A stretch of DNA of 64,000 bases from a virus (Duplodnaviria; Heunggongvirae; Uroviricota; Caudoviricetes). Each line of letters starts with the position of its first letter. Within the stretch, counting starts at the first letter, position 1. A program made the translations under genes and the position numbers. This document shows positions 13,832 to 16,038 of this stretch, one piece after another. The notes under the pieces are model-generated. The model worked only from the letters and a program-made list of their open reading frames with translations, did no database searches and was not told the origin of the DNA. Where the stretch lies: positions 1 to 64,000 of the IMG/VR virus record IMGVR_UViG_2713896905_000004, one strand, 5' to 3'.

Positions 13832-13870
13832 GCCACTGTTGACAGGACTGTTTTACAGTGGCTTGTTTTA
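13832..13870. terminator. bidirectional rho-independent terminator (GCCACTGT...ACAGTGGC + T-run)
   Basis: Inverted repeat 13832-13839/13855-13862 followed by TTGTTTTATT, between convergent tfa and glycosyltransferase genes. Confidence 0.55.
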
Positions 13871-15019
13871 TTATCCAAACCAATTTTCTAGAACATTTTC
13901 AAATTTATGGGTAACTTGCCACCATAAATAGTTCTCTAATACATATTTCTTTCCGTTATTTGCAATTTGTTCTAATTTTTCGGAGTGTAATGTTTCATAT
14001 ATATCACTAGCTAAACTTTCTGGCAACATTGGTTCATTTATATGAAATCCTGTATGGTTATTTTTTACAAATTCAACCATTCCACCTCGAGTGCTAACTA
14101 AAACGGGTTTTCCTGCCCCCATAGCTTCTATAGCAACCATGCAGAACGGTTCTTGAAACTGAGATGGGATTACAACTAGATCGGCTATAGGATAGTAACG
14201 GTACATATCATCTGGTTTTACCCCGCCAACAAGATGACAACGCGAACCAATAGTTCCAGCAAGTTCCCTTACTTGTTTTTGATATGCAGCTTTTTCTCCT
14301 TTATCTTTATTATTGTAGTCACCAACAACTACAAGTTCTATATTGTCACATGATTTTATCAATTTTTTAAACGCTTGTAATAGTAAAACAGTCCCTTTTT
14401 CAGGGGAGATCCTTCCCGCATAAAAGATAACTTTTTTCTCAGAGGGAATACCTAAATCTTGTTTTGTTAGCGGGGGTAGCCCTTTATCTAGATTGTGTGG
14501 TTCTGTACCATTAGGAACTATACAAATTTCAGCGTCAGGAAGATGTTTTTCATAAAAATCCTTTAAATACTGACTTGGAACAAGCATTTTCACATTGCTA
14601 TCTAGCCCTTTCGGTGTAAAGGCATTATGCATATGCATTATCATTTTTGCGTCAGGAGCTTTCTCTCTAATTTGACGATAAAGTTTCATGCTGTTATGAA
14701 CAATAATAATGCTATCGTTTGTGATATTGAAATCTTTAGCAATGTTTAACACTCGTTGTGAATATGGAATAGGATCTATTCTGCTCCATTTTTGAAATAT
14801 CCGTTTATAAAGACGGCTAAACCCTATTCTATGGATAGAGCATCGCTCATTAACAATATCTTTTTCTGAGAAACCATCCTCTCGAATGCATGCTATACGA
14901 TTTGGTATTCTTGTTCTCTTTGCGACTTGATATATCCAAGTTTCAACAGCTGCTGCGCCACGAGGTGGTATTGAAAATATTGGTGTAACTGTAAATATTA
15001 ATTTGTCAATCATGAGCAA
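13871..15019 (-). CDS. glycosyltransferase, GT-B fold family 4 (GT1/GT4-type), 382 aa
   Basis: C-terminal GT4 signature 'FYAGRISPEKG...' and 'EPFCMVAIEAMGAGKPVLVSTRGGMVEFV'; strongly AT-rich relative to flanks. Confidence 0.85.
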   Translation of the reverse strand: MLMIDKLIFTVTPIFSIPPRGAAAVETWIYQVAKRTRIPNRIACIREDGFSEKDIVNERCSIHRIGFSRLYKRIFQKWSRIDPIPYSQRVLNIAKDFNITNDSIIIVHNSMKLYRQIREKAPDAKMIMHMHNAFTPKGLDSNVKMLVPSQYLKDFYEKHLPDAEICIVPNGTEPHNLDKGLPPLTKQDLGIPSEKKVIFYAGRISPEKGTVLLLQAFKKLIKSCDNIELVVVGDYNNKDKGEKAAYQKQVRELAGTIGSRCHLVGGVKPDDMYRYYPIADLVVIPSQFQEPFCMVAIEAMGAGKPVLVSTRGGMVEFVKNNHTGFHINEPMLPESLASDIYETLHSEKLEQIANNGKKYVLENYLWWQVTHKFENVLENWFG

Positions 15020-15557
15020 CTATCCTCTTATAATCTTTTTCCTTTAAATGTTTTTTTAGGGTTGCGGGAGAGCCCGCATACATTGTATTAGCAGGAACAT
15101 CAGTATTTACAACGCTATTTGCAGCTATAACACTATTGTCTCCTATTTTTACACCTGGTAGCACAGTTGTATTTGCCCCAATCCAAACATTACGGCCTAT
15201 TTTTATTGGAGCGCAAATTGTTTCTTTGGGACGTTTGCTTGGTGTTAGTGGATGCGTGACAGTTGTTAATACAACGTTGGGGCCAATGGCAGAGTTACAT
15301 CCAATATCTATTGTTTTTGCATCGAGAAAAACACAATTTGCGTTAATGAAGACCTTTTTATCAATAATTATATTGCCATTCTCAAAATAAAATGGAGCTG
15401 TTATTGTTGAGTCTTCACTTACTTTAACTCCTGTTTTTTTTAATGTGATTAATTTTTTTCTTTTTGAGATCAAGGTATAATTAAATATATGTCTTGCTTT
15501 CTTTGCTTTCTTTTTTTGAAAAATTATATAGAAATAATATGTTAGCAAATCAAACAT
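15006..15557 (-). CDS. hexapeptide-repeat (LbH) O-acetyltransferase, maltose/galactoside O-acetyltransferase-like
   Basis: Left-handed beta-helix repeats 'IGPNVVLTTVTHP...IKIGRNVWIGANTTVLPGVKIGDNSVIAANSVV'; overlaps GT start; AT-rich. N-terminal boundary uncertain. Confidence 0.8.
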   Translation of the reverse strand: MFDLLTYYFYIIFQKKKAKKARHIFNYTLISKRKKLITLKKTGVKVSEDSTITAPFYFENGNIIIDKKVFINANCVFLDAKTIDIGCNSAIGPNVVLTTVTHPLTPSKRPKETICAPIKIGRNVWIGANTTVLPGVKIGDNSVIAANSVVNTDVPANTMYAGSPATLKKHLKEKDYKRIVAHD

Positions 15558-15581
15558 TGTTGTTTTACTTCCATTTAAAAT

Positions 15582-15911
15582 TTAACTATCAAATGTGGCT
15601 CCTATTTCTCGCATTTTGTTAAGTATGATGTTTATTTCATTGCTACCGAGAGAAGTTTGGGCAGCTATGAAAAAAAGTATGTGCAATGACATAGATCTGT
15701 TATTTTCTTTGTTTATATATTTTCTCCACTGGCTATCGCTGCTGACCCCGGCTAGTTCTGCCATTTGATTCCCTGTATACCCAAGCGTTTCTTTGAATTG
15801 ACGCAAATCTTGTGATTTGGGGGGGGTGTAGTTGTTTATTAACCTCATATTAAACCCATTATTGGTAAGCTTTCGTTGGTGTAATGGTAGCACCAATGGG
15901 GCTGCTGTCAA
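15582..15911 (-). CDS. small XRE-like helix-turn-helix protein (start possibly at internal Met, ~15848)
   Basis: 'LRQFKETLGYTGNQMAELAGVSSDSQWRKYI' resembles an XRE-family HTH; first gene of the AT-rich minus-strand cassette. Confidence 0.45.
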   Translation of the reverse strand: MTAAPLVLPLHQRKLTNNGFNMRLINNYTPPKSQDLRQFKETLGYTGNQMAELAGVSSDSQWRKYINKENNRSMSLHILFFIAAQTSLGSNEINIILNKMREIGATFDS

Positions 15912-16038
15912 GCGTCTTTTCTTTATAAATATAGGGAGCCATCAAAATCTGACATCAATTATCTATCGAAATATTTTGAATGACTGGTGAGAAGTTACTT
16001 TGCATACCATTACCTCCTGACAACGTAGGAGGGAACTT

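Follow-up and report, generated by a model that had tools for sequence, protein, structure and literature searches.

Lysogenic conversion of lipopolysaccharide (LPS) is classical for O-antigens, with gtrABC and Oac as examples. The LPS core oligosaccharide is the receptor or co-receptor of many coliphages and the site to which the O-antigen is attached. Here we describe a low-GC cassette of three genes, encoding a helix-turn-helix (HTH) protein, a hexapeptide acetyltransferase and a glycosyltransferase, within 64,000 nucleotides of a P1-like phage-plasmid (IMG/VR record IMGVR_UViG_2713896905_000004, positions 1 to 64,000; this whole stretch is hereafter called the window). We consider it probable, if well short of certain, that these genes form a lysogenic-conversion operon, autoregulated and directed at remodelling of the host LPS outer core.

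The closest described enzyme is WaaK (RfaK) of Salmonella enterica and of the Escherichia coli R2 core, with which the cassette glycosyltransferase shares a full-length match to the NF012028 family, a length of 380 aa, the GT4 fold, the EX7E motif and low GC content. WaaK is a UDP-N-acetylglucosamine (UDP-GlcNAc):(glucosyl)LPS alpha-1,2-GlcNAc transferase, and in the R2 and Salmonella cores it adds the terminal side branch required by the O-antigen ligase (PMC13293308). In contrast to WaaK, the phage enzyme lies outside the waa locus and not by waaL, is only 55% identical to Salmonella waaK, belongs to a separate mobile clade and is paired with an acetyltransferase, which waa loci lack. The GT4 enzyme at the end of the E. 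coli waaQ operon is among the closest waa relatives (60% identity; Citrobacter, 62%) and bears the same PGAP family name, but it is chromosomal, situated in the waa locus and accompanied by neither an acetyltransferase nor an HTH protein. These waa-locus relatives, including Salmonella waaK, are sited beside waaL.

Several other systems share single aspects of the cassette. Like gtrABC (P22, SfV) and Oac/OafA-type acyltransferases (Sf6), which are LPS-altering cargo of temperate phages with their own expression signals and are thought to block superinfection, the cassette is temperate-phage cargo with a promoter of its own; unlike them, it encodes two soluble cytoplasmic-type enzymes with a predicted core target instead of integral membrane proteins acting on the O-antigen, and it adjoins fibre genes instead of int/att. 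WabB, encoded on plasmid pO157, reportedly adds non-stoichiometric GlcNAc to the E. coli core; it is said to differ from the present enzyme in its location on a virulence plasmid, its family, its acceptor position and its lack of linkage to a receptor-binding module. The HTH protein resembles the restriction-modification C-proteins, Aca1/Aca2 and CapH in being small, in being encoded early in an accessory operon with a palindrome in its own promoter, and in having these proteins as its best structural matches. It differs from them in scoring below the HTH_31 threshold and in that the genes it would control encode glycan-modifying enzymes, its DNA binding being a prediction. Finally, the cassette occupies the same map place as the P1 C-segment and Cin switch, between the constant part of the fibre gene S and the lydA operon, whereas cin, the Sv'/U' set and lydC are gone, the tip is a fixed one of non-P1 type and an LPS operon fills the space.

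Our searches of the searchable literature, which are no proof of novelty, returned no description of a phage-borne or P1-borne WaaK-like gene, of such a cassette or of a function for this HTH family, and a survey of Salmonella prophage cargo listed O-antigen modifiers only. The aspects that we predict to be new are core-directed lysogenic conversion by cytoplasmic enzymes of the core-assembly type, their placement within the fibre module and their control by a portable promoter-operator-HTH unit. Taken singly, the locus is cargo of an expected kind; what is general and testable is the block linked to the fibre, together with the conserved operator-HTH platform and its exchangeable glycan enzymes.

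A WaaK-family glycosyltransferase outside the waa locus

The longest open reading frame (ORF) of the glycosyltransferase spans 13871-15019, with the true start at the ATG at 15013, in agreement with the PGAP annotation. The protein scored 657.9 bits against NCBIfam NF012028/PRK15484 (WaaK/RfaK, 'lipopolysaccharide N-acetylglucosaminyltransferase'; cutoff 618), with residues 3-381 of 382 aa aligned to model positions 1-379 of 380, and 128 bits against PF00534 Glycos_transf_1. Its EX7E motif was located at E288-E296 (QEPFCMVAIE), and both glutamates were invariant among 10 aligned sequences of the mobile clade. Judged by these matches, the enzyme is a full-length member of the WaaK/RfaK family of LPS outer-core glycosyltransferases. 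The GT4 fold and EX7E-like motif proposed from the sequence alone were thus retained, and the assignment was refined to this family. Because the family acts on the LPS outer core, the earlier proposal that the enzymes modify a surface polysaccharide also holds after the homology check and can be narrowed to the LPS core. The predicted reaction is the addition of alpha-1,2-linked GlcNAc, or of glucose (Glc), to the terminal outer-core glucose; either could be the donor, since close relatives bear both names.

The locus lies neither in waa, nor at the end of the waaQ operon, nor beside waaL, but between the tail-fibre assembly gene (tfa) and lydA. The nearest relatives from outside Escherichia were Salmonella proteins of 66-72% identity, likewise encoded outside the waa locus, in prophages, in prophage remnants (by integrase, tfa and macro-domain genes) or in small islets. 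In a neighbour-joining tree, these phage-borne and islet-borne glycosyltransferases formed a clade of their own, apart from the waa-locus enzymes; Salmonella chromosome contigs mislabelled as phage in the phage collection and detected by tblastn served as the canonical waaK reference. Low GC content, as seen in the cassette, is a family trait of the variable centre of waa loci (PMC8715443).

In S. enterica, a WaaK-like paralogue was also observed, on more than 1000 contigs, in a prophage-remnant region between an integrase and a SMEK_N-domain gene. Tfa and Collar-fibre genes are found within a few kb of it, and one genome has a gene for a pertussis-like toxin subunit nearby.

A probably coupled acetyltransferase of the LacA/Maa branch

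The acetyltransferase matched PF00132 Hexapep (54.4 bits) and PF14602 (44.7 bits), and residues 17-175 matched E. coli LacA (1KQA) with an E value of 5e-28. Its 'THP' histidine aligned with that of the LacA 'GHP' motif, which we take to be the catalytic base. The protein fell far under the equivalog cutoffs of both Maa (105 bits vs 314) and LacA (103.6 vs 347), so that maltose or lactose cannot be assigned as its substrate by homology; it is best regarded as a different enzyme of the same superfamily branch. A reading as a Vat/CatB antibiotic acetyltransferase was rejected (about 50 bits vs cutoffs of 300-475). The stop codon of the acetyltransferase gene overlaps the start of the glycosyltransferase gene by 8 nt, which suggests translational coupling of the two.

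A widespread promoter-HTH unit with a candidate operator

The cassette promoter matched 10 of the 12 consensus positions of a sigma-70-type promoter, and its spacer contains a candidate palindromic operator (Table 1). The pattern GCNCCAWTGGNGC occurs once in the window, with 0.03 matches expected. Within 400 nt upstream of HTH homologues, the palindrome was found with at most one mismatch at 26 of 65 loci, compared with 0 of 325 control segments, and its outer bases co-vary symmetrically (GC..GC, GG..CC, GA..TC). The architecture of TTGACA, 3-4 nt, palindrome and TAnnAT is kept upstream of HTH operons in other genera. This conserved arrangement validates the promoter call and makes it likely that the 88-aa HTH protein is an autoregulator acting through the predicted operator.

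The longest ORF at the HTH gene spans 15582-15911 (109 aa) and opens with TTG. Because this TTG belongs to the -35 hexamer, and because the approximately 100 homologues are all 86-90 aa long and all open with MRLIN.YTPP, we placed the start at the ATG at 15848. The product, called a small HTH protein in the sequence-only reading, is thus 88 aa long instead of the 109 aa of the longest ORF, and it models as an XRE-type HTH. The protein matched phrog_20491 (E 5e-25), labelled in PHROGs as of unknown function; HTH_31 scored 16.9 bits (E 0.008), below the cutoff of 27, and an NCBIfam search gave no match. An AlphaFold (AF2) model built from 25 homologues had five helices and a predicted local distance difference test score of 75. 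Its top Foldseek matches in the PDB were all XRE-type HTH proteins (Aca1, the CapH N-domain, SinR and C-proteins), with probabilities of up to 1.0, template modelling scores of 0.5-0.6 and weak E values of about 0.05.

A scan of one genome per species placed HTH homologues at 80 loci of Gamma- and Betaproteobacteria. In Enterobacterales, the gene 3' of the HTH gene was repeatedly a low-GC surface-glycan enzyme, and five other families were encountered in this position: WaaZ_KDO_III in Citrobacter braakii, GT2 in Buttiauxella, GT4 (72% identical to the window enzyme) in S. enterica subsp. arizonae, a hexapeptide acetyltransferase in Enterobacter, and Acyl_transf_3 enzymes, of the Oac/OafA kind, in Lonsdalea, Serratia, Citrobacter koseri and Yersinia, in the last together with SASA. 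Directly behind the HTH-linked enzyme, a convergent tail-fibre assembly gene was found in C. braakii, C. koseri, Buttiauxella and Enterobacter, and a remnant fibre tip in C. braakii was 60% identical to the tip in the window. At the betaproteobacterial loci, the downstream gene was mostly unassignable or unrelated to glycans, and the generalisation to glycan cargo is therefore solid only in Enterobacterales. The HTH gene lies outside the block shared with the E. albertii plasmid pEA32_4 described below and is part of a separate, widespread promoter-operator-HTH unit.

In most of the other genomes, an ORF of 51-57 aa lies between the promoter and the HTH gene; it encodes a coiled coil with a C-terminal transmembrane helix (…AELAKINAEIAKL…WYPIVVASGLIGAVA…) and is followed by a GC-rich hairpin and T-run, the end of which lies about 10 nt ahead of the ribosome-binding site of the HTH gene. 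Such an arrangement suggests that control acts by read-through or attenuation, or that the HTH protein has a small toxin-like partner. Both the ORF and its hairpin are missing from the locus in the window. An 88-aa ORF upstream of the acetyltransferase gene in a Salmonella prophage was considered as an HTH homologue and rejected as unrelated (18% identity).

A low-GC island on a P1-like phage-plasmid

Window region 13800-16000 was 100% identical to p2RM9973 (NZ_CP043272.1, 102 kb) of Escherichia albertii RM9973, a strain isolated from a cloacal swab of a crow; window coordinates are those of the p2RM9973 record minus 21086. The record carries the P1 hallmarks C1 repressor, Cre-type integrase, phd/doc, Lpa, pacAB and the lydA-lydB-darA operon, and p2RM9973 is a P1-like phage-plasmid and thus a temperate carrier. 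P1-like phage-plasmids are common in E. albertii, with 41% reported for one UK collection (preprint). The cassette was absent from P1, P7, SJ46 and RCS47, and a megablast search of the region against 50,697 phage records gave no match to the cassette proper.

The three minus-strand ORFs noticed in the sequence-only reading were present where it had placed them, and the AT-richness judged there by eye was borne out by GC content, both overall and at third codon positions. GC content was 34.7% in the cassette (13817-15978) and 47.6% in the whole window; among windows of the same size (standard deviation 3.2%), 0.5% were equally low or lower. GC content at third codon positions was 0.24 in the glycosyltransferase gene and 0.22 in the acetyltransferase gene, compared with about 0.51 in lydA and lydB. 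The cassette region is the sole large low-GC island within the 64 kb. Its left edge lies at about 13400, within the tail-fibre assembly gene, and not at 13832 as first proposed. On the right, P1 homology restarts at 15979, a short distance upstream of where LPdar and lydA map. We mapped LPdar through a 97% identical alignment beginning at window 15979 (P1 locus 9001); its homologous position is divergent from the cassette promoter and marks the right-hand P1 backbone. Two smaller low-GC patches at 40801-41400 and 52701-53300, with a minimum of 37.4% in 500-bp windows, fall in genes annotated in the record as a hypothetical protein (FYK17_RS22515) and a 'DNA-binding protein' (FYK17_RS22600).

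The terminator that had been proposed between the cassette and the fibre genes was recovered as a hairpin that folds significantly on both strands. It was established by explicit folding in place of a simple consensus scan, which returned zero sites because the hairpin loop exceeds 8 nt. Folding energy was -21.2 kcal/mol (z = -5.0) on the plus strand, where GUUUUAUUAU comes next, and -17.6 kcal/mol (z = -4.1) on the minus strand, where the U tract is poorer. The hairpin separates two convergent units, the tail-fibre operon on the plus strand and the cassette on the minus strand.

Table 1. Features of the cassette and its surroundings, in window coordinates
Feature	Position	Strand	Description
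Sigma-70-type promoter (predicted)	15884..15911	-	-35 TTGACA 15911-15906; 16-nt spacer; TG-extended -10 TACCAT 15889-15884
Candidate operator	15890..15902	both	13-bp palindrome GCACCAATGGGGC; pattern GCNCCAWTGGNGC; directly beside the -10, within the spacer
XRE-type HTH protein (phrog_20491)	15582..15848	-	88 aa; first gene of the operon
Hexapeptide acetyltransferase	15006..15557	-	183 aa; LacA/Maa-type left-handed beta-helix
Glycosyltransferase	13871..15013	-	380 aa; WaaK/RfaK-family GT4
Hairpin terminator	13827..13877	both	RNA folding; 13-bp stem 13827-13867, then T-run on + strand
Segment in place of P1 C-segment (Sv, U, U', Sv'), cin and lydC	10454..15978		5.5 kb; gap in P1 alignment
Tail-fibre tip	11533..12347	+	C-terminal part of S-like fibre; HxH repeats; left end of shared block
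Macro-domain protein	12344..13213	+	PF01661, 70 bits; fibre-like HxH C-terminus
Tail-fibre assembly protein (Tfa, Caudo_TAP)	13238..13816	+	PF02413, 110 bits; GC 38%
LPdar-homologous position (P1 late promoter)	15993..16011	+	Mapped from P1 annotation (P1 locus 9015-9033)

Linkage to a fibre module that replaces the P1 switch

Homology to P1 around the locus was confined to window positions 6513-10453, from the constant S part to the cix region, and 15979-19729. The P1 counterpart of the intervening segment, about 5 kb long, holds Sv, U, U', Sv', cin and lydC; in the window this space is taken by the three-gene cassette together with Tfa, a macro-domain protein and a fibre tip of another kind. 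The arrangement is not the simple insertion behind the tail-fibre assembly gene that was first proposed: the segment replaces the P1 C-segment, cin and lydC wholesale, and the enzyme genes lie within a colinear fibre block. Because the invertible C-segment and cin are absent, the tail fibre appears to be fixed and non-switchable. Its tip belongs, by sequence similarity, to a lambda-Stf/T4-gp37-like family and not to the P1 type; its relatives are lambdoid side fibres, T-even long fibres and phage 9g-type fibres, whose receptors are mixed or unknown. The earlier argument that P1-type phages adsorb to the LPS core has no direct carry-over to this element, the P1 tip having been lost.

Two observations concern the margins of the P1 homology. 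At window 10266-10453, the cixR-homologous region and its adjacent repeat are all that remains of the P1 switch. At window ~19729-19735, the alignment skips from P1 locus position 12752 to 14057, which implies a deletion of about 1.3 kb relative to P1 in the ddrB region of the darA operon.

Linkage between the cassette and this fibre variant extends beyond P1-like elements. In a blastn comparison, window 11533-15557 corresponded to positions 4761-8761 of a locus extract of pEA32_4 (NZ_CP117604.1) as a single colinear 4,044-bp block of 85% identity, with the order fibre tip, macro-domain gene, tfa, glycosyltransferase, acetyltransferase, and with its right end at the acetyltransferase start codon. 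Plasmid pEA32_4, of E. albertii, is 49.5 kb long, encodes a P2-type baseplate and an IncFII RepA, and is unrelated to P1. The C-terminal half of Tfa, from about 13400, is of low GC and restricted to cassette-bearing elements. Of the plasmids in PLSDB, 14 have this fibre-tip/Tfa variant over at least 88% of its length, and precisely these 14 carry the cassette; approximately 48 other plasmids share only the macro-domain gene and the N-terminal half of tfa (about 84%, to ~13395) and are without the cassette. A Salmonella chromosomal prophage carries an acetyltransferase (67% identity) and a glycosyltransferase (66%) convergent on tfa, macro-domain and fibre genes, and one IMG/VR contig carries the glycosyltransferase by itself at the corresponding position next to a fibre module.

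P1-like elements seem to house acetyltransferases repeatedly in the slot downstream of tfa. At this site in the P1-like plasmid NZ_CP033848.1 (locus extract 6611-7156), another left-handed beta-helix enzyme, a 'serine acetyltransferase', is convergent on and overlaps tfa; no HTH homologue was found at that locus. The macro-domain gene lies between the fibre and its chaperone and overlaps the fibre stop by 4 nt, and similar macro-Tfa arrangements occur in Gifsy-1, SEN4/5 and many plasmids. The protein matched phrog_2613 and phrog_14717 ('tail protein'), and a PDB sequence search gave one weak match. A role in ester cleavage or in ADP-ribose metabolism is speculation.

Proposed mechanism

In the mechanism that we favour, a sigma-70 promoter independent of the Lpa-dependent late promoters of P1 would express the three genes in the plasmid-prophage state. 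The 88-aa HTH protein would bind the spacer palindrome and limit expression, in the manner of C-proteins and Aca proteins, and transcription of both the cassette and the fibre genes that face it would stop at the hairpin. Working on lipid A-core at the inner membrane, on its cytoplasmic side, the WaaK-like enzyme would extend the terminal outer-core glucose by an alpha-1,2-linked GlcNAc (or Glc), and the soluble, coupled LacA/Maa-type enzyme would use acetyl-CoA to O-acetylate the added sugar or a neighbouring hexose before flipping. The altered core could change the surface met by core-binding phages, and possibly O-antigen ligation too. The likely benefit would be masking of the receptor of phages with this kind of fibre, resulting in superinfection exclusion and in fewer progeny lost on lysogens or debris. 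We infer this benefit because the enzymes are co-inherited with the fibre tip and its chaperone across three phage backbones; receptor masking is the least secure step of the mechanism.

The view of the cassette as a horizontally acquired lysogenic-conversion moron, which was put forward in the sequence-only reading, is supported in kind by its foreign GC content, its own promoter and terminator, its temperate carrier, its absence from P1, P7, SJ46 and RCS47 and its disruption in some carriers; the superinfection exclusion or host-range change raised in that reading is conjectural.

Integrity, distribution and alternative explanations

The window and at least four other plasmids carry all three genes in intact form. 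In a comparison of the window with pEA32_4 (dS = 0.59), the ratio of nonsynonymous to synonymous substitution rates (dN/dS) was 0.07 for the glycosyltransferase and 0.14 for the acetyltransferase; this long-term purifying selection establishes both as real genes. Several of 13 further copies are damaged: insertion sequence (IS) IS5 lies in the 3' end of the acetyltransferase gene in one and at the 3' end of the glycosyltransferase gene in another, IS1 truncates a third, and four to five plasmids have frameshifts. The IS events are genuine, whereas frameshifts in AT-rich stretches of long-read assemblies may in some cases be errors. The cassette was found in 10 of 5,426 complete E. coli genomes, plasmid-borne in every case, and most of the Escherichia that carry it come from birds or livestock. 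A cassette that is dispensable and occasionally lost fits the expectation for cargo of which the usefulness varies with the host core type. The loci, which were hit independently by IS elements, are those of NZ_CP117630.1 (extract 2415-3690), NZ_CP104510.1 (1437-2417) and a third plasmid (1788-2485), with ISKpn26 (IS5 family) at different sites in two of them and IS1 in the third; in the IS1 copy, the fibre side is swapped for another glycosyltransferase and an acyltransferase-family gene.

Several points weigh against an autoregulated core-remodelling operon. Besides the damaged copies, these include the weak Foldseek E values of the HTH model and the absence of the HTH protein from pEA32_4 and the Salmonella prophage, both of which bear the acetyltransferase-glycosyltransferase pair, so that the HTH protein is not required for the enzymes. 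The donor is not fixed by the family name, since PGAP names some close relatives 'UDP-glucose--(glucosyl)LPS alpha-1,2-glucosyltransferase'. WaaD of the R3 core reportedly transfers glucose, and the 60% identical E. coli relative at the end of the waaQ operon is, given the gene order, presumably R3 WaaD. The acceptor may be absent in some hosts, depending on core type, and the literature searched yielded no core type for E. albertii or strain RM9973. Masking of the element's own receptor is conjectural, the tip family being able to bind OmpC or LPS, and expression, LPS chemistry and the effect on adsorption are all steps that we infer.

One alternative concerns the beneficiary. The operon might modify the LPS core for a purely bacterial benefit, such as O-antigen ligation or capping, serum or bile resistance, immune evasion or colonisation of the bird gut, with its proximity to the fibre genes reflecting hitch-hiking in a cargo hot spot. 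In R2 and Salmonella cores, recognition by the O-antigen ligase requires the GlcNAc that WaaK adds (PMC13293308), the avian and livestock origin of most carriers would fit such a benefit, the receptor of the fibre tip is not readable from sequence, and unrelated cargo occupies the position downstream of tfa elsewhere (the serine-acetyltransferase-like gene of NZ_CP033848; SMEK_N plus a methyltransferase in Salmonella). We nevertheless regard this explanation as unlikely, if not greatly so: the linkage of 14 of 14 cassettes to one fibre-tip/Tfa variant and block transfer into three backbones exceed what a generic hot spot would give, and the cargo that follows the HTH gene is repeatedly a surface-glycan enzyme beside a receptor-binding module.

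Decay offers another account, in which the cassette is neutral cargo and non-functional in most carriers, as the IS5 insertions at two different sites, the IS1 truncation, the several frameshifted copies and the low frequency among E. coli genomes would suggest. It appears quite unlikely in view of the intact copies in the window and at least four plasmids, the strong purifying selection, the conservation of promoter and operator, and the possibility that frameshifts in AT-rich homopolymers are assembly errors. A further possibility is that the substrate lies outside the core (enterobacterial common antigen, capsule, a small molecule or antibiotic, or a phage or host protein in a conflict system). 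LacA/Maa enzymes are promiscuous, the acetyltransferase has its weak Vat and CatB matches, and the glycosyltransferase scored 48.8 bits against PF20706 'GT4 in conflict systems'. The PF20706 score is far below that of PF00534, and we rejected the conflict-system reading as generic GT4 similarity; the Vat and CatB scores are a fraction of their cutoffs, and a PADLOC search of the cassette proteins gave no match to any. The family matched at full length and above cutoff is an LPS-core family, with 60% identity to genes within waa loci, and a non-core substrate is very unlikely. A core-remodelling operon remains the explanation that we favour.

Implications

The locus may exemplify a more general, so far undescribed design, which we put forward tentatively; that its three parts hold jointly is possible but doubtful. 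A portable unit of sigma-70 promoter, 13-bp operator and phrog_20491 HTH gene would drive interchangeable glycan enzymes (WaaK-like, WaaZ-like, GT2, acyltransferase 3 and left-handed beta-helix) in Gamma- and Betaproteobacteria; at a fixed site convergent on the fibre chaperone, tip and masking enzymes would move together as an 'adsorb-and-mask' module; and phage-borne WaaK-like and WaaZ-like genes would act as a vehicle for the spread of outer-core genes and the diversification of waa loci. More speculatively, the macro-domain protein might be a virion-borne esterase that strips the O-acetyl group added by the acetyltransferase, so that the element's own virions pass the mask.

One survey found no mobile-element traces in the low-GC variable part of waa loci (PMC8715443). 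Phage-borne WaaK- and WaaZ-like genes would provide a testable route to a horizontal origin of that part. Inference of the Salmonella LPS core could be confounded by so common a second 'waaK' at a site other than waa, and the promoter-operator-HTH unit offers a simple sequence marker for surface-modifying prophage cargo. If the proposed function is true, P1-like phage-plasmids can rewrite core structure, which would affect the prediction of phage susceptibility, the choice of phages for therapy and in silico core typing from waa loci alone. A fibre tip co-transferred with receptor-modifying enzymes would represent a compact case of linked offence and defence.

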